Below are positions 1 to 15,124 of a stretch of DNA of 15,124 nucleotides, piece after piece. The notes beneath the pieces were generated by a model, which had not been told where the DNA came from, did not search any database, and saw nothing but the letters and a program-made list of their open reading frames with translations. The translations under genes were made by a program, and so were the position numbers. Origin of the DNA: a virus; UHGV virus genome UHGV-0073333, one strand, 5' to 3'. Every line of letters begins with the position of its first letter. Within the stretch, counting starts at the first letter, position 1.

Positions 1-47
1 GGCGTTTCCGGTGGTAGCGTAACCTGCTATCTGAAGGAGGCTGCCAC

Positions 48-242
48 ATGCTGGCTACTACCCCTACCCAAAAACCGCAATTTATCTGGATTATCGCCGC
101 AGTTCGCCGCGATTGCCCGACAATTACCGCCAAAATTCATCATATTGCTGCCGAGTCTGAACGCGATGCTCGCCGTTCTCTGGTGCGCGATCACGTCTGC
201 TTTTTTGCTGGTCGTATCCGCATGGAGGTGGCACATGATTAA
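48..242 (+). CDS. Small hypothetical protein (64 aa), first gene of a translationally coupled operon; possibly Icd-like (weak recollection only)
   Basis: ATG at 48 preceded by AAGGAGG at 34-40; stop TAA 240-242 overlaps next start ATG 235. Confidence 0.55.
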   Translation: MLATTPTQKPQFIWIIAAVRRDCPTITAKIHHIAAESERDARRSLVRDHVCFFAGRIRMEVAHD

Positions 243-453
243 AACCTACGATGTGCATATGGATCCCCTCGAACGCACAAGCCAGATCATCACACTGACA
301 GAAGTGATTAACGACATTCTGGTGAGCAACTCTCCCTCACGAGACGAAAGACTGAAGGCGTTACTCGCGATATTGGATCTCGCCGTTCGTGACGTTCATT
401 TCCTGCTGGAAGGTGGCGAAATGCCAGGAAAAACGGGGGCAACCAATGAATAA
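235..453 (+). CDS. Hypothetical small protein (72 aa)
   Basis: ATG 235 with GGAGG at 224-228; in frame with ORF 145..453; start overlaps upstream stop. Confidence 0.5.
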   Translation: MIKTYDVHMDPLERTSQIITLTEVINDILVSNSPSRDERLKALLAILDLAVRDVHFLLEGGEMPGKTGATNE

Positions 454-640
454 CTCAATTAATGCCCCTCGACTTACGTCCGCACTTCAATTAATCGAGC
501 AAGCAGCGGCTGTCCTGGTTGCTGTCAGTCTTTCGGCTGAAGAAATGGACGCTGCTGATGTCGTGGATGCGATTAAAGCGTGCTCATCTTTGGTTAACGA
601 TGCTCGTGCAGAGCTGGTAATTCTTGGTGGTGAAAAATGA
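446..640 (+). CDS. Hypothetical small protein (64 aa)
   Basis: ATG 446 with GGGGG at 435-439; overlaps upstream stop at 451-453; in frame with ORF 389..640. Confidence 0.45.
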   Translation: MNNSINAPRLTSALQLIEQAAAVLVAVSLSAEEMDAADVVDAIKACSSLVNDARAELVILGGEK

Positions 641-900
641 ATATCAACTTAATTTATCGTCATCCGTGTGAGCTGGAAATTGAATCATTGCTGAGCCGTG
701 AAGAGCCATATCCAGACACATTCACTCTTGCAGATCGCACGACTGAACGGCTTACCAGAGCGCGCACAGGTCTGGTTCATGTGATGAATGAGATTCTTCC
801 ATCGGTGGGAGGGGAACAGGCGACAGTAATCACTAGCTGGCTACAAAAAGTTACCTCTCTGATAGATATCAGTTTAATCGATGCGGAGAGTGCGAAATGA
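637..900 (+). CDS. Hypothetical small protein (87 aa)
   Basis: ATGA start/stop overlap with the upstream gene at 637-640; ORF track. Confidence 0.5.
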   Translation: MNINLIYRHPCELEIESLLSREEPYPDTFTLADRTTERLTRARTGLVHVMNEILPSVGGEQATVITSWLQKVTSLIDISLIDAESAK

Positions 901-1118
901 CCAACATCCAGCTCATTGAAGCACAATGTCGCATCGAACAGGTTCAGACTGTTTTAGGGTTCTGGCTTGAAGGGGCCAGCCCCAGCAACAGAGACAAGTT
1001 AATGATTGGCGCGGTTATGTCACTGCTCAATGGCGTACCAGAAGCTATTCAGGAAGCAGACGAATTGTTGGGCAAATATGAGTTACAGAATCATTCAGGC
1101 GAGGCGAAACATGAATAA
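897..1118 (+). CDS. Hypothetical small protein (73 aa)
   Basis: ATGA overlap at 897-900; ORF track. Confidence 0.5.
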   Translation: MTNIQLIEAQCRIEQVQTVLGFWLEGASPSNRDKLMIGAVMSLLNGVPEAIQEADELLGKYELQNHSGEAKHE

Positions 1119-1713
1119 TTTCTTAACTTTCCATGCAGAAGCAACGCCTGACGGCGTAAACATCATGTACCGCAGCAACGATGGCATGACAGAACGCGTT
1201 GAGGCCGTCTCATATATTGATGCCGTAAATCGTCTGGATGCCGGGGATTATGACGATAAACCAGATGAAGGTATGTCAATACATCTCGCTATAGCCGATG
1301 GCGGCAACCAGGGATATTTCGATTACACATCACAGCATAACGTCATTATGTGGAGATGGCTGATCGCAACAGTATTCATGCTGGAAATGAGAGAGGAAAA
1401 CGGCACTGTCAGCATCATTGATGATACTGGCAATCCTTCCGAAGTGGCTGTTTATTCCAACGGCATCGTCGCCATGCCGCTGTATCCAGTAGCAGAGCGC
1501 CTCGCTATGGCAAACAACATTGAGGGCGCGATGATAGAACGTTTTGGCATCGAGTCTGGCACAGAACGCGCCATCATTTTCTACAGAGCCATGATGGATG
1601 TGGAACAAGGAGCACTGACTCCATTTGGTCGTGAAACGCTTGCTGAACTTCACAACAGCTTTATAGCTGAACTGAATGAAAACGGCATGCCAGCGGAACC
1701 AGTGACGCACTGA
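1111..1713 (+). CDS. Hypothetical protein (200 aa)
   Basis: ATG 1111 overlaps the stop of the upstream gene (coupled); in frame with ORF 1006..1713, whose longer N-terminal extension would overlap the previous gene and is not preferred. Confidence 0.55.
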   Translation: MNNFLTFHAEATPDGVNIMYRSNDGMTERVEAVSYIDAVNRLDAGDYDDKPDEGMSIHLAIADGGNQGYFDYTSQHNVIMWRWLIATVFMLEMREENGTVSIIDDTGNPSEVAVYSNGIVAMPLYPVAERLAMANNIEGAMIERFGIESGTERAIIFYRAMMDVEQGALTPFGRETLAELHNSFIAELNENGMPAEPVTH

Positions 1714-1723
1714 GGATGGAACC

Positions 1724-2065
1724 ATGATTACTAAAAATTTCCGACTGAATGCGCTGGCAAATAAGTATGCGTCGGCACTGTATAACCACATTACCTCCAC
1801 CAGCGGCGGGGACTATTTCATGGTTGATGCGGACGGCGAGGCCGTCCGTGTGGAAATCGTCAATGGAGTAAAAGGCGTTCGCAGCCTGATCGATAGCTAC
1901 ACACTGGCAGCCATGAAAGTGTTCTACCCGCAGTGGGAAACCGTGGGGATCGAGCTTCTTGATCGTTGCGTCACTAAGGACGGATTGACTGACGTCGGGC
2001 GTGAGATATGGCAAAGCATGGTTAATGACATGGGCGCAACTGTAGCGGGAGGTTCTCATGCGTGA
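1724..2065 (+). CDS. Hypothetical protein (113 aa)
   Basis: ATG 1724 with GAGGA at 1712-1716 (7-nt spacer); ORF track. Confidence 0.6.
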   Translation: MITKNFRLNALANKYASALYNHITSTSGGDYFMVDADGEAVRVEIVNGVKGVRSLIDSYTLAAMKVFYPQWETVGIELLDRCVTKDGLTDVGREIWQSMVNDMGATVAGGSHA

Positions 2066-2429
2066 AAATGCAGAAATGGCGCTTAGCTCCGCAATCGGAG
2101 AGCAGGTGGCAAAGATTGCTGGTGCTGTGTGGATTCATAACCTTCATTCTACTGGTGAAGAGAAAATGGCAATTCAGACGCCAGAGGGACGCACCATTAC
2201 TACATCTCTGAAGCCGTCAGATGTTTGTGATCTGATTTGCGCATTCATGTACCCAGCAATGAGGACTGCCCACGGCGATAAGTGGAAACTTGCGACAACC
2301 GCTGAATTTGATATGTGGCTAAACAATGATGGCATGCTGACTGATTACGGAATAACCAAGTGGCAGATGCTGGTTAGCCATATCGCAAACGCTATAGACC
2401 ACGTGGGGTACGGTGATGCGAAACATTGA
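2058..2429 (+). CDS. Hypothetical protein (123 aa)
   Basis: ATG 2058 with GGGAGG at 2047-2052; overlaps upstream stop 2063-2065; ORF track. Confidence 0.6.
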   Translation: MRENAEMALSSAIGEQVAKIAGAVWIHNLHSTGEEKMAIQTPEGRTITTSLKPSDVCDLICAFMYPAMRTAHGDKWKLATTAEFDMWLNNDGMLTDYGITKWQMLVSHIANAIDHVGYGDAKH

Positions 2430-5172
2430 TCTTATCCGTCAGGTTATCAGTGCGTCTGAAAACAACTGGCCTCATGTGCTGGGCTGCCTGAACATAAATG
2501 TCCCTGACTCTCCGCGCCGTCATGCTCCCTGCCCTGCATGTGGGGGCAAAGATCGATTCCGGTTCGATGACAACGGGCGCGGTAGCTTCATCTGTAATCA
2601 GTGCGGCGCTGGTGATGGGCTGGATTTAATTAAACGCGTAAATAACTGCGACACAACAGAGGCGGCGCTTCTTGCCGCTGATGTTCTGGGTATTGATTAC
2701 CGGACAACGGAAACACCAGAAGCCACCAGCCAGAAACGGGAACAACTGGAAACCGAGCGCCAGCGACGCGAACAGGAGCGCCTGAAAAGGGCAGAGAAGG
2801 ACGAACAACAAAGACGGGATACGTTTTCCCGTCAGTTTGATGACATGCGCAGAAAGGCTGTAAACGGCAAATCTGATTATCTGGTTGCGAAAGGGGTAGG
2901 TGATTTTACATTCCCCGTGTTGCCCGATGGATCTCTGTTGCTGGCGCTGGTGGATAAATCCGGCGCAGTAACAGCAGCACAGACTATTACCTCACATGGT
3001 GAAAAAAGACTCCTGACAGGTTCAGCAAAGCGGGGGGCATATCACGCCATAAACGCACCAGAAACAACACAGAGCATCTTAATCGCAGAAGGGCTGGCAA
3101 CGGCATTATCTGCCCATTTAATTCGTCCAGAGGCGCTGACAGTGGCGGCGATTGATGCCGGGAACCTGTTATATGTCGCCCAGGTACTGCGGGATAAATT
3201 TCCTTCAGCACAAATCATCATTGCTGCGGATAACGACCACAGCGAAGGAAGACAAAACACGGGGAGAATAGCAGCAGAAAAAGCAGCTTTATCTGTTTCT
3301 GGATGGGTGGCATTACCCCCGACAGATCACAAAGCAGACTGGAATGATTACCACCAAAAACACGGCATTAAATGCGCCACAGAAGCGTTCAATAAGTCAA
3401 TGTACCAACCACAGGGTAATGGCGTGAAACAGGAGCCACAGACCATTGAGGGAAGCGATTTTAAGGTTATGGATACCGACCCACTGAAACCAAGAATAGA
3501 AAGCCGCGAGGATGGTATTTATTGGGTATCTCCGAGAGCTGACAGCCAGAGTGGAGAAATCATCAATAACGAAAGCTGGTTATGTTCTCCGTTAAGCGTT
3601 ATCGGTACTGGCAGAGACGATAAAGACCAGTATCTCATTCTTCGCTGGCTGTCGTTTGGTTCTGAAACGCCGACAACCGCTGCCATTCCACTGGCTGATA
3701 TTGGTGAACGTGAAGGATGGCGCACACTTAAAGCTGGTGGGGTAAATGTCACGACCAAAAGCAGCCTCAGAGCAATACTGGCAGACTGGCTACAACGCAG
3801 TGGCTCTCGTGAATTGTGGCGTGTTGCTCATGCCACTGGCTGGCAATGCGGAGCGTACATCATGCCTGATGGGGAAATCATCGGAACACCTGAAAATCCT
3901 GTGCTGTTCAGCGGGAGAAGCTCAGCCGCAGCCGGATATACCGTCTTAGGGAGCGCGAAAAGCTGGCGTGATAACGTGGCGCGTCTGGCCTTTGGTAACT
4001 ATTCAATGATGACCGGGATCGGCGCAGCACTGGCAGCGCCATTGATTGGGCTGGTGGGCGCTGACGGGTTCGGCATTCATTTCTATGAGCAGTCGAGCGC
4101 AGGGAAGACCACCACGGCAAACGTGGCGAGCAGCTTATACGGCAACCCTGATTTACTGCGGCTGACGTGGTACGGAACCGCGCTGGGGCTGGCAAATGAG
4201 GCCGCCGCCCACAATGACGGACTAATGCCGCTTGATGAAGTTGGTCAGGGCGCTGATCCTGTCAGCGTTTCACAGTCTGCCTATGCGTTATTTAACGGTG
4301 TAGGGAAACTGCAAGGCGCTAAAGATGGTGGAAACCGGGATCTAAAACGTTGGCGTACAGTGGCAATCAGCACCGGAGAAATGGATTTAGAAACATTTAT
4401 CGCTACTTCCGGGCGAAAAACCAAAGCCGGGCAACTGGTGCGACTGCTGAATATTCCGTTGAGTAAAGCAGTACGCTTTCACGATTACCAGAACGGAAAA
4501 CAGCACGCAGACGCACTGAAAGACGCTTACCAGCATCACCACGGCGCGTCCGGGCGTGAGTGGATTAAATGGCTGGCAGACCACCAGCAACAGGCTATTA
4601 AAACCGTTCGTGATTGCGAAAGCAGATGGAGAAGCCTGATCCCATCCGATTATGGTGAGCAGGTTCACCGTGTAGCCGCGCGATTTGCCATTCTGGAGGC
4701 CGCATTGTTGTTAGGCGAGGTTGTAACAGGCTGGGATGCTCAGACATGCCGTGATGCGATACAGCACAGCTATAACGCATGGTTGCGCGAGTTCGGCACA
4801 GGTAACAAAGAGCATCAGCAGATTATTGAACAAACGGAGGCATTTCTTAATGCCTATGGGCTTAGCCGTTTTGCACCATTTCCATACAGCCCGGCAGATT
4901 TGCCCATCAAAGATTTAGCCGGATACCGTCAGCGTGGAGAACATGACGAAAGCCCAATGATTTTCTACACATTCCCGGCCACATTTGAAAAGGAGATCGC
5001 ATGTGGTTTCAACGCAAAACAGTTTGCTGAAGTGTTGAAAAAAGCCGGGATGCTAACCCCACCAAACAGCGGTCGTGGATACCAAAGAAAATCACCACGT
5101 ATTCAGGGACGACAAATAAACGTTTATGTACTCAATTACCAGCCAGGAGATTATAACTCATCTGAAGAATGA
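2416..5172 (+). CDS. Bifunctional primase-helicase replication initiator, P4 alpha-like (zinc ribbon + TOPRIM + P-loop NTPase)
   Basis: 918-aa ORF; CxxC...CxxC zinc ribbon (CPACGG...CNQCG); TOPRIM signatures (IAEG glutamate, AADND DxD); Walker A-like SSAGKTT; start ATG 2416 (GTG 2413 also possible) overlapping the upstream stop. Confidence 0.88.
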   Translation: MRNIDLIRQVISASENNWPHVLGCLNINVPDSPRRHAPCPACGGKDRFRFDDNGRGSFICNQCGAGDGLDLIKRVNNCDTTEAALLAADVLGIDYRTTETPEATSQKREQLETERQRREQERLKRAEKDEQQRRDTFSRQFDDMRRKAVNGKSDYLVAKGVGDFTFPVLPDGSLLLALVDKSGAVTAAQTITSHGEKRLLTGSAKRGAYHAINAPETTQSILIAEGLATALSAHLIRPEALTVAAIDAGNLLYVAQVLRDKFPSAQIIIAADNDHSEGRQNTGRIAAEKAALSVSGWVALPPTDHKADWNDYHQKHGIKCATEAFNKSMYQPQGNGVKQEPQTIEGSDFKVMDTDPLKPRIESREDGIYWVSPRADSQSGEIINNESWLCSPLSVIGTGRDDKDQYLILRWLSFGSETPTTAAIPLADIGEREGWRTLKAGGVNVTTKSSLRAILADWLQRSGSRELWRVAHATGWQCGAYIMPDGEIIGTPENPVLFSGRSSAAAGYTVLGSAKSWRDNVARLAFGNYSMMTGIGAALAAPLIGLVGADGFGIHFYEQSSAGKTTTANVASSLYGNPDLLRLTWYGTALGLANEAAAHNDGLMPLDEVGQGADPVSVSQSAYALFNGVGKLQGAKDGGNRDLKRWRTVAISTGEMDLETFIATSGRKTKAGQLVRLLNIPLSKAVRFHDYQNGKQHADALKDAYQHHHGASGREWIKWLADHQQQAIKTVRDCESRWRSLIPSDYGEQVHRVAARFAILEAALLLGEVVTGWDAQTCRDAIQHSYNAWLREFGTGNKEHQQIIEQTEAFLNAYGLSRFAPFPYSPADLPIKDLAGYRQRGEHDESPMIFYTFPATFEKEIACGFNAKQFAEVLKKAGMLTPPNSGRGYQRKSPRIQGRQINVYVLNYQPGDYNSSEE

Positions 5173-5194
5173 GCTTCTTCATGTGCGTAGAAAA

Positions 5195-5310
5195 GGTGTT
5201 GGTTCAGTTGGTTCAGTTGGTTCAATTTGTAAAGAGTATTGTTTTATAAGGATTTTATTCTTTTTATTGAACCAACACTGAACCAACAACACGGTATTTT
5301 GAACCAACAC
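5195..5310. repeat. Iteron cluster A: 3 tandem GTTGGTTCA 9-mers, AT-rich spacer, 3 inverted TGAACCAAC 9-mers; ori/crr-like
   Basis: Tandem 9-mers at 5198-5224; inverted copies at 5268-5276, 5279-5287, 5300-5308; 5195-5236 is a perfect 42-bp inverted copy of 13753-13794. Confidence 0.75.
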
Positions 5311-5358
5311 AATGTGACTGAATTGATGCGCACAACACCTGGCTGGCATCAGAGAGTG

Positions 5359-5434
5359 TTTTACGAGACTTTCGTAAAATCCTGTGTACAAGGGCGTGAC
5401 GTTTTTGAAAGTGAGCACTACGAAATTTTCGTAG
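5359..5434. promoter_or_regulatory. Two palindromic protein-binding-site candidates sharing a TTTCGTA half-site
   Basis: TTTTACGA-N5-TCGTAAAA at 5359-5379 and perfect 17-bp palindrome CTACGAAATTTTCGTAG at 5418-5434; same core recurs at 14253-14288. Confidence 0.35.
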
Positions 5435-5628
5435 TTCAAAAAACAGCCTCTGAGAAGTTGTTATGCCTGTTCAGCAAACCATCCGCATAGCTGATCGCGA
5501 ATCAAATTACCAATGGAGCCAGAAGCAAGGGCAGAACTGAAAAGCGCCTGCCGTGAAGAGTAATGCGACACCATAAATATAGTTTTTAGAGTCCATAAAA
5601 AACCTGTCAAAACCTGACACACAGAACG

Positions 5629-5662
5629 ATGCCACCAGCTACTGAGCGGTGGCATTTTTTTG
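5629..5662 (+). terminator. Rho-independent terminator closing the primase operon
   Basis: 8-bp stem ATGCCACC (5629-5636) / GGTGGCAT (5648-5655) followed by a T-run at 5656-5661. Confidence 0.7.
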
Positions 5663-5756
5663 TGCTATTTGTTTCATATTTTGCAATTACGATGATGAAT
5701 ATTGCGATTTGTGAAACTATAATAACTGTTGTTTTATACAGTTCTAAGGGGGCGTT

Positions 5757-5918
5757 ATGGCTATTTCAGTAAAGCAGGTATTGATAAGTGAGAAGCAAAT
5801 GGAAGCGATAAAGAAAATTCAGGAAGAGCAGCGTAAAAAATCAGGAATTGGAGTAGCGCCAACTCTGCATGAAATTGCACGAGGGTTAATAGATAAGGCG
5901 CTGGCAGGCTGTATGTGA
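5757..5918 (+). CDS. Small protein (53 aa), first gene of the plus-strand cargo operon; possibly a ribbon-helix-helix-like DNA-binding protein
   Basis: ATG 5757 preceded by AAGGGGG at 5746-5752; not in the ORF track (below cutoff), translated by hand: MAISVKQVLISEKQMEAIKKIQEEQRKKSGIGVAPTLHEIARGLIDKALAGCM. Confidence 0.5.
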   Translation: MAISVKQVLISEKQMEAIKKIQEEQRKKSGIGVAPTLHEIARGLIDKALAGCM

Positions 5919-5934
5919 AAATGGATGGCATCGC

Positions 5935-6396
5935 ATGGAACTAAAATTTATTGATAACCCTGTGCGATTACAGGCCTTTCTTAACGAGCCAGGCAATACC
6001 GAAAATATTGTTGAGCCGGGGCACACGTACTACATCAAGCCTGATGCGGTATATCTCGGCATCTACGAAGGATTAGTGCTGGCTGGCGTTCATGAAGTGC
6101 GTAACTTCTGGCATAGCGTTGTTGAATGCCATGCGGTGTACGACCCCGGATTCCGTGGTGAATATGCACTGCAAGGGCATCGATTATTCTGCAAATGGCT
6201 TCTCGAAAACTCACCATTCCTTAACAGCATTACCATGGTTCCTGACACCACCAAATACGGACGGGCAATTATCCGTTTGCTTGGCGCTACCCGTGTTGGT
6301 CACCTTGATGATGCTTATATCAGATGTGGTAAACCCGTCGGCGTAACGCTTTATCAGTTAACTCGGCAACAATATAAGGAATTCAGCGAATGTTAA
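5935..6396 (+). CDS. Hypothetical protein (153 aa); occupies the gp14 position of a P22-type ejection cassette
   Basis: ORF track; starts 16 nt after the upstream stop; its stop overlaps the next start (ATGTTAA). Confidence 0.7.
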   Translation: MELKFIDNPVRLQAFLNEPGNTENIVEPGHTYYIKPDAVYLGIYEGLVLAGVHEVRNFWHSVVECHAVYDPGFRGEYALQGHRLFCKWLLENSPFLNSITMVPDTTKYGRAIIRLLGATRVGHLDDAYIRCGKPVGVTLYQLTRQQYKEFSEC

Positions 6397-7043
6397 TTAC
6401 CCACATAGCTCATAAACATCTCAATCGTGCCGTATACGAAAAAGGCGGTGATGGTGGTGCCTCTAAAGCTCAGGCGAAGGCCCAGCAGCAGGCAATTGAT
6501 TTGCAGCGCGAGCAGTGGAATACGGTGATGAATAATCTCAAGCCGTATGCAGAAGTCGGATTGCCTGCTTTACAACAACTACAAGGACTGATGACTCTGG
6601 AAGGGCAGAATAAAGCCGCGAATGATTTCTTTGGTTCTGGTTTATATAAAACACAGGCAGATCAGGCCCGTTATCAGAACCTTGTCTCAGCAGAAGCTAC
6701 CGGGGGGCTTGGCTCAACAGCTACCAGTAACCAGTTATCTTCCATTGCGCCCATGCTTTATAACAATTGGCTTAGTGGGCAAATGCAAAATTATGGAAAC
6801 CTGCTAAATGTCGGGATGAATGCGGCATCAGGGCAGGCAACAGCAGGGCAACTCTTGCAGGGGCTTGGCGCTATTCGTGCAGGTCAGGCGCAGCAGCCAT
6901 CCAGTCTTGCGCGTGGTATTGGTGGGGCGGCATCAGGCGCTTTAGCGGGTGCGCAACTTGGTTCCGTTGTTCCGGGTATAGGTAATGTCGCCGGGGCTAT
7001 TGGTGGTGGGCTTATTGGTCTTGTTGGGGGGCTTGGATTCTAA
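6390..7043 (+). CDS. Gly/Gln-rich protein (217 aa) with a glycine-zipper hydrophobic C-terminus; ejection-protein-like (gp7-like by position and size)
   Basis: ORF track; C-terminal GGLIGLVGGLGF; TAATG overlap with the next gene. Confidence 0.7.
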   Translation: MLITHIAHKHLNRAVYEKGGDGGASKAQAKAQQQAIDLQREQWNTVMNNLKPYAEVGLPALQQLQGLMTLEGQNKAANDFFGSGLYKTQADQARYQNLVSAEATGGLGSTATSNQLSSIAPMLYNNWLSGQMQNYGNLLNVGMNAASGQATAGQLLQGLGAIRAGQAQQPSSLARGIGGAASGALAGAQLGSVVPGIGNVAGAIGGGLIGLVGGLGF

Positions 7044-8464
7044 TGGCGACATGGCAACTTGGCGGGCTGCCTAGCATGGCACCGCAAAATGATAATGCTC
7101 CTCGTTCTTCCGTTCCTCAGCCTGTGCAGTATCAGCAGCAGCCAAACGTAGGTTTAATGGCGCTACAGGGGCTAAGAGGCGTTGCTGAGATTAATCAGCA
7201 GGCACGTCAACAACAGCGTAAAGCAGAGTTTCAGAAAGCATATGCCGGGGCTTTTGAGTCTGGAGACAGAAACAAAATGCGCAGTCTTATTTCTGAGTAT
7301 CCAGAAGAATTTGAAAGCGTTCAGAAAGGGATGGGCTTTATTGATGACGACCAGAGAAATTCTATTGGTCATCTTGCGACTAGTGCTCAAATCGCATCTT
7401 CGCTCGGAACTGGGGCATTTGGAAAATTCATAGCAGATAACGAAGATGAAATGCGTCGCTTGGGAATTTCTCCTGAGTCTGTTGCCGAAATGCATGTTAA
7501 TGATCCACAGGGATTCCAGCGGCTTGCTGGTAGTATGGCACTGTTTTCTCTCGGTCATGAGAAGTATTTCGATATCAAAGATCAAATGGAAGGTCGGGAT
7601 ATTGAGCGTGGCAAGTTGGCAGAAACAATCCGCAGCAATCAGGCTGGCGAAGCACTTCAGGCGAGAGGGCAGGATATTAGCCGAGCAAATGCGTTAACGT
7701 CAGCATATGCACCAACAGCAGCAATGCAGAATTACAATCAGTACGCTCAAATGTTAAAGGCGGATCCAGAGGGGGCGGCGGCATTTGCGGCAGCGGCTGG
7801 AATTAATACAAACGCCAAAAAATTAATGAGTGTTAGAGAAAACGATGATGGCACTGTCACAAAATACTACACAGACGGAAGTGAAGAGCAGGGAAAACTA
7901 AACCAGCCAATATCTGGAGATGGGTTTCGTCCAATAGCTTTGCCAACAGCCCAAAAGATCATGGAAAAGTCGCCAGAAGGGGCTAAAAAAGCTGCTGGAT
8001 TTGCATACAGGGTTAGGGATGCTCTTGATTCAATAGATACACTGAAAGACCAGCTTAGCCCACAGCGAGTGGCGATCATTAATAATGCTTTGGGTAATGG
8101 GACGCTGGCTAACTTAACGCTCAGCCCAATAGAGCAGCAATACGTTGTTAATGCTAATGACGCAATAATGGCAATACTCCGTCAGGAAACAGGGGCATCT
8201 ATCCTACCAGCTGAAATGTCCAAATATTATCAAATGTATTTCCCTCAGCCTGGTGATTCCACAAAAACCATTGATACCAAGCGCCGGAAGATGGAAAACC
8301 AGTTCAATTCGCTGAAAGCTGCTTCTGGTCGAGCTTATGATGCTTTGCGGGTTATTTCAGCAGTTGACAGAGGAACTTCTTCTTCGTCGCAGACATTGCC
8401 GCAATCTGAGCAGGTATCACAGCCAGCAGCCAGCAGTAATTTTTCTTCACTATGGGGTGATTAA
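7043..8464 (+). CDS. Low-complexity Gln/Ala-rich protein (473 aa); ejection/internal virion protein-like (gp20-like by position and size)
   Basis: ORF track; translationally coupled on both sides; no enzymatic motifs seen. Confidence 0.78.
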   Translation: MATWQLGGLPSMAPQNDNAPRSSVPQPVQYQQQPNVGLMALQGLRGVAEINQQARQQQRKAEFQKAYAGAFESGDRNKMRSLISEYPEEFESVQKGMGFIDDDQRNSIGHLATSAQIASSLGTGAFGKFIADNEDEMRRLGISPESVAEMHVNDPQGFQRLAGSMALFSLGHEKYFDIKDQMEGRDIERGKLAETIRSNQAGEALQARGQDISRANALTSAYAPTAAMQNYNQYAQMLKADPEGAAAFAAAAGINTNAKKLMSVRENDDGTVTKYYTDGSEEQGKLNQPISGDGFRPIALPTAQKIMEKSPEGAKKAAGFAYRVRDALDSIDTLKDQLSPQRVAIINNALGNGTLANLTLSPIEQQYVVNANDAIMAILRQETGASILPAEMSKYYQMYFPQPGDSTKTIDTKRRKMENQFNSLKAASGRAYDALRVISAVDRGTSSSSQTLPQSEQVSQPAASSNFSSLWGD

Positions 8465-10143
8465 TGGCTAAAGCATGGAAAGATGTTATCGCTTCTCCAC
8501 AGTATCAGGCGTTAGCACCAGAACAAAAAGCGCAGGCTCAAGAGCAATACTTCAATGAAGTCGTGGCCCCGCAAGCCGGAGAAAGTGTAGAGCAGGCTAA
8601 GCAGGCTTTTTATGCTGCCTATCCACTACCATCAACGAATGAAATAGACCGATCCCAATCAGCAACTCAAAATATTCAACATACATCATCTGATAATTCT
8701 CTTGCGTCAGGGTATGCAAAGTTAGCTACTCAGCAAAGAGAGGGGCTTGAGCGTTCAGCAGAACAGGGAGCCAGTCTTGGGGCTGCGATGCGCGATGCTA
8801 TAACAGGCGAAAGCCGAATGACTCCAGAGATGGAGAGACTGCAAAATGTCGCCTCTGCCCCAGAATTGAACTCACTAAGCATGGATGCCCTAAAGGCTGG
8901 ATGGTCTCAACTTTTCGGCTCTGACGCGTCTCAGGAAAAGATTCTTCAGGGAATGGGGGCGACATTAAGGCAGGATGAGAAGGGGAATACTATCGTTTCT
9001 CTGCCATCAGGTGATTATGCCCTGAACAAGCCGGGTTTATCACCGCAAGACCTGACTTCGTTTCTTGCTAATGCGTTGGCGTTTACACCAGCGGGCAGGG
9101 CTGGAACGGTGCTTGGTGCCATAGGAAAATCAGCAGCTACAGATTTAGCACTACAGGGAGCCACCAGCCTTGCTGGTGGAGAAGATATTGATCCGTTACA
9201 AACGGTAATTTCTGCTGGCATTGGTGGTATTGGTAAGGGGCTGGAAAATACAGCGAGTGCGGTTTCGAGGGCTGTTCGTGGTGATATGTCGCCTGAAGCA
9301 AAGGCTGCTGTCGACTTTGCATCGGAAAGAAATCTGCCGTTAATGACCAGTGACATGCTGAAAGATAAAACCTTTATGCAGAGTCAGGCTCAGACATTAG
9401 GCGAAAGAGTTCCTTTTTTTGGAACCGGTAAGAATCGGCTGAATCAACAACAAGCACGAGAAAATTTAGTCAGAACATTTAGCGATGGTCTGGGTGGCAT
9501 TTCTGATAAACAGCTTTATGAATCTGCGACTAAAGGGCAACAAAAATTCATTGAGGCAGCAGGAAAGCGATATAACCGCATAATTGACGCTATGGGGGAT
9601 ACCCCTGTCGATCTCTCAAACACGGTAAAAGCTATCGACAATCAGATTGCCGTGTTAAGCCGCCCGGGCAAATCTCAGGATAGAGCCGCGGTAAAAGTCT
9701 TGCAGCAATTTAAAGACGATATCACCAGCGGACCAAATGACCTGCGTCTGGCGAGGGAAAACAGAACCGATCTTCGAAAGCGATTTATGGCGTCATCTGA
9801 CACTGTTGATAAAGATACGCTCCAGAAAGCCAGCGATATTATCTACAAGGCATATACGGCGGATATGAAAAAAGCCGTAGCCAAAAATCTTGGAGCAGAC
9901 GAAGCCATTAATATGGCAAGGGTTGATCGCTCATGGTCTAAATTCAATGACATGATGGGAAGAACGCGCGTTCAAAAGGCAATAGCCAGCGGCAAGGCCA
10001 CGCCTGAGGATGTAACAAAACTCGTTTTTAGCCAAAGCCCATCAGAACGTTCTCAGCTTTACAGGCTTCTGGGTGACAATGGTAGGGAAAAAGCACCAGC
10101 AGCCATAGCTGCTGCGTTAGGCAAAACGCACGAGCGGCCATAG
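8464..10143 (+). CDS. Low-complexity Ala/Gln-rich protein (559 aa); ejection/internal virion protein-like (gp16-like by position)
   Basis: ORF track; ATG 8464 overlaps upstream stop (TAATG), GGGGTG Shine-Dalgarno-like sequence at 8451-8456. Confidence 0.78.
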   Translation: MAKAWKDVIASPQYQALAPEQKAQAQEQYFNEVVAPQAGESVEQAKQAFYAAYPLPSTNEIDRSQSATQNIQHTSSDNSLASGYAKLATQQREGLERSAEQGASLGAAMRDAITGESRMTPEMERLQNVASAPELNSLSMDALKAGWSQLFGSDASQEKILQGMGATLRQDEKGNTIVSLPSGDYALNKPGLSPQDLTSFLANALAFTPAGRAGTVLGAIGKSAATDLALQGATSLAGGEDIDPLQTVISAGIGGIGKGLENTASAVSRAVRGDMSPEAKAAVDFASERNLPLMTSDMLKDKTFMQSQAQTLGERVPFFGTGKNRLNQQQARENLVRTFSDGLGGISDKQLYESATKGQQKFIEAAGKRYNRIIDAMGDTPVDLSNTVKAIDNQIAVLSRPGKSQDRAAVKVLQQFKDDITSGPNDLRLARENRTDLRKRFMASSDTVDKDTLQKASDIIYKAYTADMKKAVAKNLGADEAINMARVDRSWSKFNDMMGRTRVQKAIASGKATPEDVTKLVFSQSPSERSQLYRLLGDNGREKAPAAIAAALGKTHERP

Positions 10144-10604
10144 TTCAGAATGCTGTAGATAAGGCGACTGATCCGTCTGGAAATATCAGTGTTGAGAAGT
10201 TTATTAATGCGTTACACCGGAACAGGAAGCAATCAGCAACTTTCTTTAAAGGCGTACATGGAAAGGAACTGGACGGCGTTATTAAATACCTCAACGATAC
10301 AAGACACGCGGCAAAAGCGAACGTTCAAAACTTAAATGGTCAGCAGCTTTATGGATTGTTAGTTGGTGGTGGCATCATAAACGCAGCAGTATTAGCGGGG
10401 ATGCTAAAAACGGCTGCGTTTGTTGTTCCTGCTGCTGGTGCCGTAGGCGGAGCAGCGAAGGCATACGAAAGCCCTGTTATACGAAATGCCTTGTTACGTC
10501 TGGCAAATACGCCAAAAGGTAGCACAGCATATGACAGAGCGATCAGTACGGTCACACAATCGCTCACCAGAGTCGCACAGGCATCACAAAAAGAAGCTCA
10601 ATAA
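10086..10604 (+). other. Open frame of 172 codons with no canonical start, overlapping the 3' end of the 559-aa gene; probable frameshifted C-terminal extension or frameshift-disrupted gene
   Basis: Stop-free from 10086 to TAA 10602-10604; first ATG/GTG/TTG only at 10356; operon terminator sits after 10604, not after 10143; encodes a Gly/Ala-rich hydrophobic segment. Confidence 0.45.
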
Positions 10605-10606
10605 CT

Positions 10607-10631
10607 GGTTAGCCACGGATGGCTAATTTTT
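10607..10631 (+). terminator. Rho-independent terminator of the plus-strand cargo operon
   Basis: Stem TTAGCCA (10609-10615) / TGGCTAA (10620-10626), loop CGGA, then TTTTT at 10627-10631. Confidence 0.55.
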
Positions 10632-11042
10632 GTTCTTTGCTCTCATCCACAGGTAAAGAAGGGCAAGAACAAGACAAAAAACAGAGAATAGATAACCTAC
10701 CTCATATGATGCGCCAAAAAAATTAGCTATTGATACGGGCAAAAAAGCTGAAGCGATCAAAATTGAAAGGCAAAAAATAAGACCAGTAATATAGTTTATT
10801 AAATTCTTAAATGAGAAACGTTTTGCTTGATTTATGGTCTTAGCGAACGATCGCTTAACGACGGATAAAAGCAAATAGATGGCGACAGTTGCTAATGCCC
10901 CTTTCCACCAGTCTGGATATAGTTTTGCGACAATCAGACCAAGGAAAACCATGATGACAGCCTGAGCATTCACACCAACCCTCCCTTTAGCGTTGTTTAG
11001 ATTGGCAATCATCATATATCCAAGACATGGCATTTGGTACAT
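10623..11042 (-). CDS. Small inner-membrane protein (about 139 aa, about 4 hydrophobic helices); start uncertain
   Basis: ORF track 10623..11210 begins at a TTG; first ATG is at 11042; strongly hydrophobic; AT-rich; no clear Shine-Dalgarno sequence. Confidence 0.5.
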   Translation of the reverse strand: MYQMPCLGYMMIANLNNAKGRVGVNAQAVIMVFLGLIVAKLYPDWWKGALATVAIYLLLSVVKRSFAKTINQAKRFSFKNLINYITGLIFCLSILIASAFLPVSIANFFGASYEVGYLFSVFCLVLALLYLWMRAKNKN

Positions 11043-11165
11043 AGCTTGGGTCGGGATTTCAAATCCGCCCCCGTTGATGGGGTCGTTACAGTACGCGCAT
11101 ATCCGCTTTATGTGAAACAGGAAGATTTTTCTGATATCACTGCCACAGCAAAACACCAATTTCGA

Positions 11166-11181
11166 GACAAGTACGCGCGCG
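11166..11181. repeat. 16-bp direct repeat GACAAGTACGCGCGCG, copy 1
   Basis: Exact copy at 11452-11467; partial third copy ACAGTACGCGCA at 11088-11099. Confidence 0.6.
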
Positions 11182-11451
11182 AGGGGTATCAGTTGCAAAA
11201 AATTTTGCAACTACGTCCGACCAATACACACACGATGGCGGGGGATACCATAAAACTGTTCTCTACATGAGACAGAGTGGTGGTGATGTGTTGATTATCG
11301 GCCTATATGCGCACAGGACGCGCTATGACAATGTTTTATGCGGGTACACCAATCACATGTATCTGGTGTGATAAATCGCGTTACATGACCTTTCATGTTG
11401 TGCTGGTGGTTATCACGACGTTCTGAATCTGGCTTTTGTCTGATATTTTGC

Positions 11452-11467
11452 GACAAGTACGCGCGCG
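11452..11467. repeat. 16-bp direct repeat GACAAGTACGCGCGCG, copy 2
   Basis: Exact match to 11166-11181, 286 bp apart, in a non-coding region. Confidence 0.6.
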
Positions 11468-11804
11468 TAACATCGAAATTATCGGATGGCGTATGTTGCT
11501 GGCAAGATAAAGTCGGCGTAATACAAAGGCGTTACTTGATAGCAGCAAGATTACAACAATGGTTGTTGAATTTGAGCGATGTAAGGAATTGATTTAGGGA
11601 GGCGCTGATGGCTAAAAAGTTCCACTACCAGCGGATGAATGCGCCAGCGATGGCCGTTTGGTAGTAAAAGAGGAGCCATTCCTCAATCAGTTGAATACAT
11701 TATGCCAACTAAATGGGTGGGGGCACTGTGTGGGTATTCAGCGGTGACGGTATTTTTTAAGCCAAGGACTATCCGTAGCAGGGGGACTCATTTTGAAATA
11801 TTTA

Positions 11805-12242
11805 TCATATGTAACTTATTATTTTAGATAAAGATTTCCAGTTAAAGAAAAAAGTTATCATTGATATAATCAAATATGCCCCTGCGAGTAGCAGGGCATA
11901 ATAATCCAGAGGCAGATTGCTGACAACAGGGGCAAACATCGAGATCATTGCTAATAGGCAGGCTGTGATCAGCGTAGTTCCTGTATCAAAAAGCCCCTCA
12001 ATAATGCCTTTTAGTACTCCGTTACTTTTTAGAGCGCCTACAATTCCCTTTGAACTATCAAAGCTACTTAGCATGGTGACTGATGCCAAAACAAAACCAA
12101 AGAGAACTCCAGAAATAGTTGAAAGAGCACCAGCAGCCGAAATGACAGCATTGTGATCTAGGTCGTGTAAAAAATGGGCACCAGCAATAGCCATAGCTAG
12201 AGCAAACAATGACTTGGCAGCAAACAATTTCCGAGAACTCAT
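11805..12242 (-). CDS. Small membrane protein (145 aa, 3-4 hydrophobic helices); second gene of the two-gene cargo operon
   Basis: ORF track; ATG with AGGA 7 nt upstream, 12 nt after the stop of the 361-aa gene; AT-rich. Confidence 0.75.
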   Translation of the reverse strand: MSSRKLFAAKSLFALAMAIAGAHFLHDLDHNAVISAAGALSTISGVLFGFVLASVTMLSSFDSSKGIVGALKSNGVLKGIIEGLFDTGTTLITACLLAMISMFAPVVSNLPLDYYALLLAGAYLIISMITFFFNWKSLSKIISYI

Positions 12243-12254
12243 AATGTATTCCTG

Positions 12255-13340
12255 TTACGTTTGACTAACCAAATAGTACTGGGTTAGATACCTAAGGTTG
12301 TCATTCTTTGCTTGTAGCATAGCATTTTTAACGTCAGTATCGGTCGGATACCCATCTGCTTGGATAGGCACCATCTTCTTTACCGTAAGAACTTCGTCTA
12401 CAAGACTTTTCTTCTTTTTATCGCCCTGAGCAACAACATTTGCTTTCTCAAAAGTTAAACGACCATCACCACCAGGGAACTTTTCTAGCATCTCCTTAAG
12501 GCTTTTTTTAACGTCATCCTCAAGCCATCCCTTTGCTTTTCTTTTTAATGGAGAATGTCCGCGTAACGAAATAGTCAGGTGGCTTGAACTGGTGCCTCTG
12601 ATCATCTCAATCATCTGATTCGCGAACATTCCATCGAGTTGATACTGTGCGGCATTGAAGTTTCTTGGGATGGCCACAGAAATCTCGCAGCTTCTTAGAT
12701 TGGATCCAGTTTCGAGTAGTTCTTTGATGCTTTCTTCTTTCCAAATGGCTTCAAAAGAAACAGGGACTCCGCGATCACTGGAGTTGAAAAGAAGGAAGGC
12801 TAAGTCACTATGGCGTGGACCTAAATGATTTAAAGACAATACTAGAATGTCTGTCTGAGGATAATAAATAAAGTATGTACGTTCTGAAAGAGTCTTTGCC
12901 CCGGCTAGAGGGATTTTCTCTTCCACCCACTCTTTATCTGTAATATATGCCAGTGTTGCGCTTTTTCTTCTTCGAGACATGAATCCGAAGTAGGAGCCAT
13001 CCTCGGGTGAGATGTCTAGAAAATGAATTTTAAGTTCTCTTTCACCAAAGTCTGCATAGTGGGTCATCTTGAAGTCTTTAGAACACCGATCATACAGATT
13101 TTTAAAGGCCTCTGCGGTTAACCCCTTGTTACTAGTGCGAATATTCTCAGAGCTTGTGTAAAAGCCCACCCTTACAGATTTCAAACTTTGATCTTTTGGT
13201 GCCACAGTCATTTGAGCTCCATTGTACTCTGCGATAGTTTTTGCACACCTTGAAATCAAAATCTCCATGTCAGTCACGAGAAAATAACTATGGATGAAAC
13301 CCATCAAAGGCATTGAATACAGGTGGCTTTTGAGAATCAT
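12255..13340 (-). CDS. Hypothetical soluble protein (361 aa), no recognisable catalytic motif; first gene of the two-gene cargo operon
   Basis: ORF track; about 40% GC by eye and AGA/AGG arginine codons suggest horizontal acquisition. Confidence 0.8.
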   Translation of the reverse strand: MILKSHLYSMPLMGFIHSYFLVTDMEILISRCAKTIAEYNGAQMTVAPKDQSLKSVRVGFYTSSENIRTSNKGLTAEAFKNLYDRCSKDFKMTHYADFGERELKIHFLDISPEDGSYFGFMSRRRKSATLAYITDKEWVEEKIPLAGAKTLSERTYFIYYPQTDILVLSLNHLGPRHSDLAFLLFNSSDRGVPVSFEAIWKEESIKELLETGSNLRSCEISVAIPRNFNAAQYQLDGMFANQMIEMIRGTSSSHLTISLRGHSPLKRKAKGWLEDDVKKSLKEMLEKFPGGDGRLTFEKANVVAQGDKKKKSLVDEVLTVKKMVPIQADGYPTDTDVKNAMLQAKNDNLRYLTQYYLVSQT

Positions 13341-13689
13341 CCTAACCTGGTGACGGTGGTTCGCATATCCTGATGGATGATCAGTGATTAATCAATGCGC
13401 CAAGCAGATGTGTCTATGTGTTTGTTAATCATTGCATGACAGTAGATCGACATGGGAGATCACGTTATATAGTTGAATTGTTAGGATATCCATGCACCGA
13501 TCAACTGACTAGGCTGATGTGCTTTTTAGCAGGTGCCATATAGTAGTTAGGCGGTTCTGTGAAATGATTACTGTTCCAGCATAACTGCGGCATAAAGCGG
13601 TGCTATATAAGCTATTTGCTGGCGGATTTAGTCTTCACCGTTCATATATGTAGTGACTATTTGACAGAGTGTTAGTTCACGGACACTTT

Positions 13690-13795
13690 TTGTTGGTTCA
13701 AAATGAGTTGATGTTGGTTCAATATTTTAGAAAAAACACAATAAAAACAACGCTCTTTACAAATTGAACCAACTGAACCAACTGAACCAACACCT
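13690..13795. repeat. Iteron cluster B (inverted copy of cluster A); ori/crr-like
   Basis: GTTGGTTCA at 13692-13700 and 13713-13721; three tandem TGAACCAAC at 13765-13791; 13753-13794 is the exact reverse complement of 5195-5236. Confidence 0.75.
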
Positions 13796-13827
13796 TTTTG
13801 CTTATCTATATAATCTGAGAGGCAGAA

Positions 13828-14115
13828 ATGATAAGGGACAGGAAAGCTGAAGAGCTGGAGTCAAAAGGGCTATACCGGAGAGCTGCCGCACGATGGGCAG
13901 AAGTCATGATGCTGGCAAATGGCGATAAAGAACGTGAACATGCAGCAAACAGGCGCTCTGAATGTATCCGTAAGGCGGCACGCCCACCAGCAACTACAGA
14001 CAGATTCGGAGATTTAAGACAGGCAGTTAAGCGAACTCATTCGGCTCTTGGTATGGATGAGGAAGCGAGAGGGTACTTCAGGCGTTATCGCGATAAAGAT
14101 TGCCAGAGACAGTAA
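13828..14115 (+). CDS. Small basic protein (95 aa), PerC-like transcriptional regulator (family assignment tentative)
   Basis: ATG 13828 with GAGAGG at 13817-13822; TATAAT at 13809-13814; N-terminal pattern AEELESKGLYRRAAARW recalls the PerC/Pch family. Confidence 0.6.
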   Translation: MIRDRKAEELESKGLYRRAAARWAEVMMLANGDKEREHAANRRSECIRKAARPPATTDRFGDLRQAVKRTHSALGMDEEARGYFRRYRDKDCQRQ

Positions 14116-14170
14116 TGCTCTCTCTGTTTTGGCAAATTACCCTTCACTTTGAAGGGAGCGGAGCTATAAA

Positions 14171-14413
14171 AATGGTTTTAGGTACATTCCTCAAATTGAG
14201 GTTTCCGAAAATATCAGCGGGTTAGCGATTAATCTGGCGAGTAATTAAACTGCGAAAATTTCGTAGGGGGTTACGAAAATTTCGTAGGTCTACTCATGGT
14301 TTAGGCTTACTTTCCCGACATCCCCCAATGGGGGGGTCGAAATAATCAATGGGTTAGGCTTACCTCCCCCCATTTCCTGCATTGCAGGTTTTCGAAAGAA
14401 TCAATGGGTTAGG
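14171..14413. repeat. Four direct copies of ATGG(G)TT(T)AGG in the integrase-upstream region; candidate arm-type or operator sites
   Basis: Copies at 14171-14185, 14295-14310, 14344-14358, 14399-14413; the last two are an identical 15-mer AATCAATGGGTTAGG 55 bp apart. Confidence 0.5.
14253..14288. promoter_or_regulatory. Tandem palindromic operator-like sites CGAAAATTTCGTAGG x2, 21-bp period
   Basis: Exact 15-mers at 14253-14267 and 14274-14288; same core as the palindrome at 5418-5434. Confidence 0.4.
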
Positions 14414-14814
14414 TCATCGTGCAAATTTGCACTCTGCCAGCCAACGCAATTTCTCGTTGGCGGAAATATCAGGTATTTACTGAACGAACGGTCTACCCGC
14501 CTGTTCAACTACCAGTTGTACATGGCTGCTTTATGTGCAAATGGTGGTGAGAGAAAATTGTTTGGGGGTACTTTTGGGGGTATCTCCAAAGATGTAATGG
14601 GGAAATGTCTTTATATATCAATGTATTTTTATTGTTTGTTTTGTTCCTATTATCGCACCATTCTAACGTCTCCCCAAGTCTACTCAAGTATTTAAAAACC
14701 TCTTATAATCAGTATATTAATGCCCCTTTTAGTCTTTTGACGTCTATTTAAGTACCCCAAACTCTACAAGCAATTGAGGGGATTTGCTGTTCAGTTTAGT
14801 GGAGATACCCCCAA

Positions 14815-15124
14815 GTGAAACTCAATGCCCGTCAAATAGACACTGCCAAGCCAAAAGAGAAGGCTTACAAGTTGGCTGATGGTGGTGGTCTGTACCTCCT
14901 GGTAAAACCTGGTGGAGGAGAATATTGGCGTCTCAAGTATCGTGTAGCTGGTAAAGAGAAGCTGTTAGCACTAGGTGTGTATCCTGAGGTCACCTTAGCT
15001 GATGCTCCTGCAAAACTTGAAGAAGCTAAAAGAGGTATCTCTGGGGGAATCGATCTGATGGAAGTGAAGCGAGAGGAAAAGATTGCCCGGGAAACGCAGT
15101 TAAACAACACCTTCAAAGATATTG
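14815..15124 (+). CDS. int: Tyrosine integrase, P4-type (DUF4102 arm-binding N-terminal domain); 5' partial, continues past window end
   Basis: GTG 14815 with GGAG at 14801-14804; N-terminal KPKEKAYKLADGGGLYLLVKPGGGEYWRLKYRVAGKEKLLALGVYPEV matches the conserved P4-family integrase signature. Confidence 0.85.
   Translation, partial: MKLNARQIDTAKPKEKAYKLADGGGLYLLVKPGGGEYWRLKYRVAGKEKLLALGVYPEVTLADAPAKLEEAKRGISGGIDLMEVKREEKIARETQLNNTFKDI

Follow-up and report, generated by a model that had tools for sequence, protein, structure and literature searches.

The perfect inverted repeat near the end of the window, the window being the whole 15,124-nucleotide stretch analysed here (UHGV-0073333), very probably pairs two arm-type sites for the N-terminal domain of P4-family integrases, which were brought together by tandem integration at the tRNA-Thr gene thrW. 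By sequence comparison, the window is a tandem junction in an Escherichia coli chromosome at the thrW insertion hotspot, and positions 14645-14663 mark the exact boundary between two mobile elements stacked at that gene. The repeat can thus be fully explained without a new regulatory mechanism.

The repeat consists of TTGGGGGTATCTCCA at 14574-14588 and TGGAGATACCCCCAA at 14800-14814, with a spacer of 211 nt. Its right arm includes the Shine-Dalgarno sequence GGAG (14801-14804), and ends at 14814 in direct abutment with the GTG start codon at 14815-14817. The first-pass annotation had described a 14-bp perfect inverted repeat with a right arm that holds the GGAG and ends 1 nt before the GTG. 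The repeat is real and the GGAG lies within it, but its length is 15 nt and its right arm reaches the start codon. A related GGGGGTAC, previously placed at 14565-14572, is present one base away, at 14564-14571, as part of TTGGGGGTAC at 14562-14571. A second, weaker inverted pair is formed by 14562-14573 and 14750-14761, which are complementary at 11 of 12 positions.

Dinucleotide-preserving shuffles of the window produced a perfect inverted repeat of at least 15 nt, with a spacer of at most 400 nt, in 2 of 300 cases. A motif scan for TTGGGGGTAY with up to one mismatch located five copies in the 15 kb, four of them inside 14562-14814; the expected number is 1.1, and five copies were reached in 1 of 200 shuffles. 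The four clustered GGGGGTAY motifs are direct at 14562 and 14574, 12 bp apart, and inverted at 14752 and 14805. Given the rarity of such a repeat in shuffled sequence and the clustering of the motif, the repeat is not due to chance. The predicted parts of the hybrid attachment site are the following.

14562-14571, + strand: P-arm arm-type site 1, TTGGGGGTAC, in the putative attR of the upstream thrW satellite-like element (motif scan; aligns with the P4 repeat at L001 1248-1259)
14574-14588, + strand: P-arm arm-type site 2, TTGGGGGTAT at 14574-14583, with the CTCCA extension; left arm of the repeat (aligns with the P4 repeat at L001 1260-1271)
14645-14663, + strand: core or crossover region, TCCTATTATCGCACCA(TTC) (thrW comparison; aligns with the P4 attP core)
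14704-14709, + strand: TATAAT in the P' arm, a candidate -10 box (P'-arm alignment)
14750-14761, - strand: weak inverted copy of the motif, TTTGGGGTAC at 14752-14761, of uncertain status (partner in the 12-nt repeat I2; motif scan)
14774-14783, + strand: degenerate arm-type site, TTGAGGGGAT, left over from the P' direct pair (aligned with P4, the intact neighbour and 17 related P' arms)
14800-14814, - strand: P' inverted arm-type site, TTGGGGGTAT at 14805-14814, with GGAG at 14801-14804; right arm of the repeat (homologous to the P4 repeat at L001 1496-1507)
14815-15124, + strand: 5' part of a truncated P4-family integrase gene, with the arm DNA-binding domain only (Pfam; translation in L002; RefSeq)

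P-arm site 2 lies in 12-bp phase with site 1. The core TCCTATTATCGCACCA (14645-14660) equals the last 17 nt of the tRNA-Thr gene thrW minus one G, and is followed by 3 further bases from downstream of the gene (compared with thrW at L002 167-245). A tRNA scan of the window found no tRNA, the core being a tRNA fragment of only 16 nt. Megablast matches that bear tRNA-Thr begin at window position 14645, and the 150 nt after the core share 74-88% identity with the sequence downstream of the thrW gene itself. Of the 17 thrW-linked rows in the P'-arm alignment, 16 retain TATAAT or TATACT, which is found neither in P4 nor in two non-thrW rows; the consensus promoter match at 14691-14718, which neighbours TATAAT, does not exceed chance expectation. 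The inverted copy at 14752-14761 is partly conserved at the same position in related P' arms and is absent in P4. Compared to intact relatives, the P' arm of the window is missing exactly one 12-bp repeat unit and its remaining direct site is degenerate, both of which fit a decayed island with a truncated int. A search with the IHF consensus yielded no exact site between the arms and the core, and two exact matches upstream, at 14344 and 14399. The P' arm also contains three direct GTCTAC(T)nnAAGT-like copies, at 14678-14689, 14742-14753 and 14762-14771, which are conserved in related thrW-type loci, while P4 has TCCGAG-type repeats at the same positions. These copies would be candidate sites for an excision factor of the Vis/AlpA type.

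The origin of the junction can be read from chromosomes that carry its halves together or apart. Over the 1,425 nt compared, the window and the E. coli EcPF14 chromosome share 99.9% identity. The order in EcPF14 is proA, thrW (tRNA-Thr), an intact tyrosine integrase, an element of ~18.7 kb, the region studied here, int', a marR-family gene and vat, and the element includes genes for an AlpA/Vis-like helix-turn-helix protein, an antirepressor, an ash-family protein, a TOPRIM/DUF927 primase, P22-type ejection proteins and perC. The clone D i14 has proA, thrW, the int remnant, marR and vat with nothing between them; the right arm of the repeat is present and the left is absent. In strain KK19-02, perC is followed by the two left sites, the core and then directly by unrelated chromosomal DNA, such that P-arm site 1 and the core are present and the right arm is absent. 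The end of the KK19-02 element carries the same core, one base short of the 3' end of thrW. The core is a recombination junction, given that in some genomes thrW is joined to the right part and in another the left part ends at the core. By megablast, the right part (14630-15124) occurs in 984 of 5,426 complete E. coli genomes, in 532 of them at an identity of at least 99%, and in most of the matches listed the alignment starts at window position 14645, overlapping tRNA-Thr. The left part (14440-14644) is found in 92 E. coli genomes, and the whole junction in 16. Besides EcPF14, ABU 83972 (NC_017631.1) is an example of a strain with the tandem. Since the arms are found apart in genomes, the left arm can be assigned to the attR P arm of the newer element and the right arm to the attL P' arm of the vat island.

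The most probable history begins with an older marR-vat island, which would have integrated at thrW to give the order thrW 3' end, P' arm and int, and whose int would later have been cut to 112 codons. A second element of ~18.7 kb, with its own intact and related integrase beside thrW, would then have entered the same tRNA end. Its right end, consisting of the two-site P arm and then the core, would have landed against the P' arm of the old island, resulting in an attP-like layout. Of the two repeat arms, the left would be the P-arm site of the newer element that lies nearest the core, and the right would be the inverted P' site that abuts the start codon of the older int. Both arms would represent the same motif of 10-12 bp, (T/A)TGGGGGTAY(CT), with three further matching bases as a lineage-specific coincidence; the close relationship of the two integrases, whose arm-binding domains are 92% identical, would account for the shared motif. 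In the attR of the newer element the left arm probably still works, and the right arm is probably a relic. By analogy to P4 and the lambda-type paradigm, integrase bound to the arm sites of intact elements would bridge arm and core to build the recombination complex, and sites that overlap the int promoter or start codon would allow for negative autoregulation.

The element that would have donated the left arm is an integrative element of ~18.7 kb at thrW, covering about 1-14660 of the window and L002 243-18960. Along with its P4-family integrase gene, its cargo includes the TOPRIM/DUF927 primase gene at 2413-5172, perC at 13828-14115 and a P22-type DNA-ejection block at about 5935-10143, which is unusual cargo for a satellite-like element; RefSeq annotates the last ejection-protein gene as truncated. 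Between the perC stop codon and the P-arm sites, at 14187-14472, there are about five repeat units, each with a short palindrome that differs by unit: CCTCAAATTGAGG, CGAAAATTTCG twice, CCCCCAATGGGGG, CCTGCATTGCAGG and GCCAACG..CGTTGGC. Each palindrome is followed by a conserved tail, roughly TTCGAAAnAATCAnnGGGTTAGG, and the two IHF matches noted above are tails that agree exactly with the consensus WATCAANNNNTTR. Relative to attP, this palindrome block is positioned like the crr/ori repeats of P4, and it could therefore be a replication origin or some other array of protein-binding sites.

A second, independent tandem junction is present in an IMG/VR locus, L014 (IMGVR_UViG_2617270975_000009). 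There, an intact thrW-type integrase is preceded by a P-arm pair, at -265 and -253, and by a core without a full tRNA. In addition, 2 of 41 parsed P arms precede a flank that resembles a P' arm. Together, L014 and the two P'-flanked P arms indicate that the stacking of such elements at thrW recurs.

The layout of the sites was compared in two collections of related loci. In IMG/VR viral contigs, a protein-based scan located 80 loci whose integrases share 86-100% identity with that of the intact neighbour. In all 52 loci with enough upstream DNA, an inverted GGGGGTAY abuts the start codon, and the direct pair at -53 and -41 is found in 51, with the remaining locus keeping only the site at -41. 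A genome collection with one genome per species likewise gave 80 loci, at 63-98% identity, spread over some 25 genera, mostly enterobacterial, including Escherichia, Citrobacter, Pectobacterium, Klebsiella, Serratia, Yersinia and Photorhabdus. The inverted site abuts the start codon in all 55 of these loci for which the start codon was located, and the three-site P' layout holds among them, although two Serratia loci show one direct site only. All three P' sites switch together between GGGGGTAY and GGGGGCAT, and the bases at the Shine-Dalgarno position vary (GGAG, CTGAG, GGGAG, AGTTG, AAAAG, AAGTG). If a single protein reads the sites, all copies would be expected to change in concert like this, between flanks that vary freely. 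The P arm was sought in viral contigs with a pattern of two phased motifs plus the thrW core, which gave 48 stretches, 31 of them on contigs independently returned by the integrase scan. Because the search pattern itself demanded the motif, its constancy in the 41 P arms parsed from these data is not independent evidence. The assignment of the GGGGGTAY sites as arm-type sites is a prediction from homology and conservation.

The same comparisons show which bases of the repeat belong to the motif. The five bases that follow P-arm site 2 are diverse among the 41 parsed P arms (CTATA in 8, CTAAT in 4, CTCAT in 4, and many others), and the CTCCA extension is seen in a single one, from the window's own lineage. 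In 19 elements for which both ends are available, P-arm site 2 and the element's own start-abutting site share a perfect run of 8-12 nt, with 13 of 19 at 9 nt and none at 15. Given these variable bases and short cognate runs, comparison among lineages indicates that the conserved motif accounts for only about 10-12 of the 15 positions of the repeat. By the same comparison, the last 3-5 positions (CTCCA, the anti-Shine-Dalgarno part) are specific to the window's lineage, and the part of the match outside the motif reads as a coincidence of roughly 1 in 64, with one lineage among 41 showing it. In the satellite lineage of the window, the P arm matches the leader of the element's own integrase (TTGGGGGTACCTCCA) at 14 of 15 positions; the perfect 15-mer exists only because the satellite P arm happens to adjoin the vat island's TTGGGGGTATCTCCA. 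That the inverted repeat as a whole is a product of chance with no biological meaning is scarcely credible. Two of the 300 shuffles of the window did reach 15 nt, and the final 3-5 matching bases do look coincidental, but a chance origin leaves aside the four clustered motif copies with their 12-bp phasing, the position-for-position homology with the annotated P4 repeats and the conservation of the motif across the genera listed above. For the 10-12 bp motif, the conservation data already refute chance.

P4 has a comparable extension. Its core-proximal P-arm repeat and its int-start inverted repeat share ATTTC beyond the 12-bp repeat (L001 1262-1277 and 1491-1505), which echoes the CTCCA of the window; this likeness is probably a coincidence. 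There may be a somewhat longer recognition sequence at P-arm site 2 and the inverted site. The suggestion from P4 that CTCCA is part of a conserved longer site was rejected as a general rule, given that the 41 P arms and the 19 cognate pairs show none.

Two functional readings of the repeat had been offered by the first-pass annotation: a long-range hairpin that sequesters the ribosome-binding site, or paired protein-binding sites flanking the int promoter. For the hairpin, a transcript covering 14574-14814 would pair the two arms and occlude the int Shine-Dalgarno sequence and start codon, resulting in translational control. If 14560-14860 is taken as one RNA, a 15-bp helix does appear in both the minimum-free-energy and the centroid structures, and no terminator-like site was found on the + strand between perC and int, such that read-through is possible. 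The promoter and terminator consensus scans were at chance level and uninformative. The predicted fold of 14560-14860 has no excess stability (z = -1.19; 11 of 100 shuffled sequences were equally or more stable), that of the proximal leader, 14725-14900, is unremarkable (z = -0.24), and a search of the window against Rfam at gathering thresholds matched no family. The pairing also fails as a conserved device. The arms belong to different elements and are found together in only about 16 of the 984 genomes with the right arm, perfect complementarity within single elements covers 8-12 nt and never fully reaches the GGAG, the anti-Shine-Dalgarno extension is limited to one P arm out of 41, and the bases at the Shine-Dalgarno position change beside an unchanging motif. 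The -35 and -10 boxes annotated for Pint of P4 fall between core and int and overlap with the direct repeats of the P' arm, so the P-arm repeats lie outside the Pint transcript; in the window, moreover, the gene to be regulated is a truncated remnant. Translational control by this hairpin is very improbable, and a conserved RNA switch on int is not supported.

The protein-site reading was right in substance, given that the arms are homologous to the annotated attP arm sequence repeats of P4. What it had missed is the tRNA-derived core, the origin of the pairing in tandem islands and the reduction of int to a remnant of 112 codons. The open reading frame at 14815-15123 contains a complete Arm-DNA-bind_3 domain (Pfam, E = 7e-24) and stops after 112 codons, at about 15150, just past the window, as judged from the translation of the 99.9%-identical locus L002. 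RefSeq annotates it as 'Arm DNA-binding domain-containing protein', 'missing C-terminus'. The full-length integrase of the neighbouring element (L002 408-1622, WP_000772646.1) has Arm-DNA-bind_3, Phage_int_M and Phage_integrase domains, and the stub is 92% identical to it over the arm-binding domain.

The remnant could itself be active, in that an expressed stub would bind the shared arm-type sites, both its own and those of incoming thrW elements, and repress or modulate the integration or excision of its neighbour. The stub has kept its start codon, the GGAG, the abutting arm site and the complete Arm-DNA-bind_3 domain, and its similarity to the domain of the neighbour's integrase is accompanied by use of the same motif. 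The N-terminal part of P4 Int is reportedly enough for autorepression. The same 112-codon truncation, at an identity of at least 99%, lies beside thrW and vat in hundreds of E. coli genomes, 532 by count. These copies are nearly identical, though, probably by clonal descent, and the fact that they are intact is therefore poor evidence of selection; furthermore, the promoter-proximal direct sites of the P' arm have decayed. An active stub is therefore very unlikely. The same low probability is given to its interpretation as a domesticated arm-binding gatekeeper near the vat island, which would influence whether thrW satellites integrate, stay or excise; if it were true, the perfect 15-nt repeat would mark two of the stub's operators.

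The preferred reading, of arm-type sites paired by tandem integration, has uses beyond the window. The arrangement of (T/A)TGGGGGTAY in a P pair, the core, a P' pair and the inverted start-codon site can serve to delimit thrW-integrating P4-family elements and their tandem arrays in the Enterobacterales, and the motif predicts the DNA that is bound by the integrase N-terminal domain. The architecture is known, and is of the ordinary kind of attachment site that is annotated in P4 records and attributed to work from 1987. A description of the motif for this thrW-specific integrase clade was not found; what comparison adds here are P4-type arm repeats for that clade, at a tandem-island junction.

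P4 is the closest known system. Among phage records that match the stretch, only three, all of P4, have an annotated feature there, and a fourth, unannotated match is a Klebsiella phage. The match in the P4 record is at the start of int, beneath a feature labelled 'attP arm sequence repeat'. In X51522, the annotated order is two tandem 12-bp arm repeats, the 20-bp attP core, two more tandem repeats, the inverted repeat and int, and the inverted repeat (ATGTGCCCCCAA) directly precedes ATGAAGCTCAAC, which encodes MKLNARQ. Pairwise alignment of window positions 14540-14830 with P4 is colinear over the full length (291 versus 297 nt), and pairs the two left sites with the P4 P-arm repeats, core with core, TTGAGGGGAT with a P4 P' repeat, and the right arm with the inverted repeat at the start of int. 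The attP/int region of P4 (X51522, X05947) thus resembles the window in having two repeats 12 bp apart, about 55 bp, a core from a tRNA 3' end, about 115 bp, two tandem repeats, about 20 bp and an inverted repeat that abuts the int start (MKLNARQ), and in encoding an integrase with an Arm-DNA-bind_3 domain.

The two also differ. The motif is GGGGGCAT in P4 and GGGGGTAY in the window, one base apart, and the integrase is 43% identical to P4 Int. P4 is a phage attP, whereas the window is a chromosomal hybrid junction with P and P' arms from two elements, and with a decayed P' direct pair and a truncated int. The donor of the P arm has different genes from P4, namely the TOPRIM/DUF927 primase, the ejection-protein genes and perC. 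The leucine tRNA locus of P4 is leuX. The target is thrW (tRNA-Thr) for the window and a leucine tRNA locus for P4 (PMC7286903). For the attP/int region of P4, PMC7286903 cites Pierson and Kahn (1987, J Mol Biol 196:487). P4 int is negatively regulated by Int and Vis, according to the title of Piazzolla 2006, a paper cited by both PMC7286903 and PMC2951348.

In the IntS/TorI system of KplE1, int also reads away from the tRNA, with P' arm-type sites that lie between the tRNA end and the start codon and overlap the promoter or leader region. Arm-type sites bind the integrase N-terminal domain (PMC2951348), and overlap of attL with the int promoter leads to negative autoregulation, which was shown for IntS and proposed to be general by Panis and coworkers (Panis et al. 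2010, PMC2951348). IntS differs in that it belongs to another integrase group and uses a TAAA-containing motif, and in the window a promoter and autoregulation would be expected by analogy. The CP4-6 element of E. coli K-12 at thrW, with the link to intF autoregulation tested in PMC2951348, was considered as a further parallel and rejected; it is not comparable because no integrase lies next to thrW in the same orientation. PMC7545054 lists a report by Parreira and Gyles (2003) of the VAT pathogenicity island next to thrW. The right half of the feature corresponds to the thrW-proximal end of that island, with the int remnant, the marR-family gene and vat, and the window differs in that a second element has been inserted between thrW and the island.
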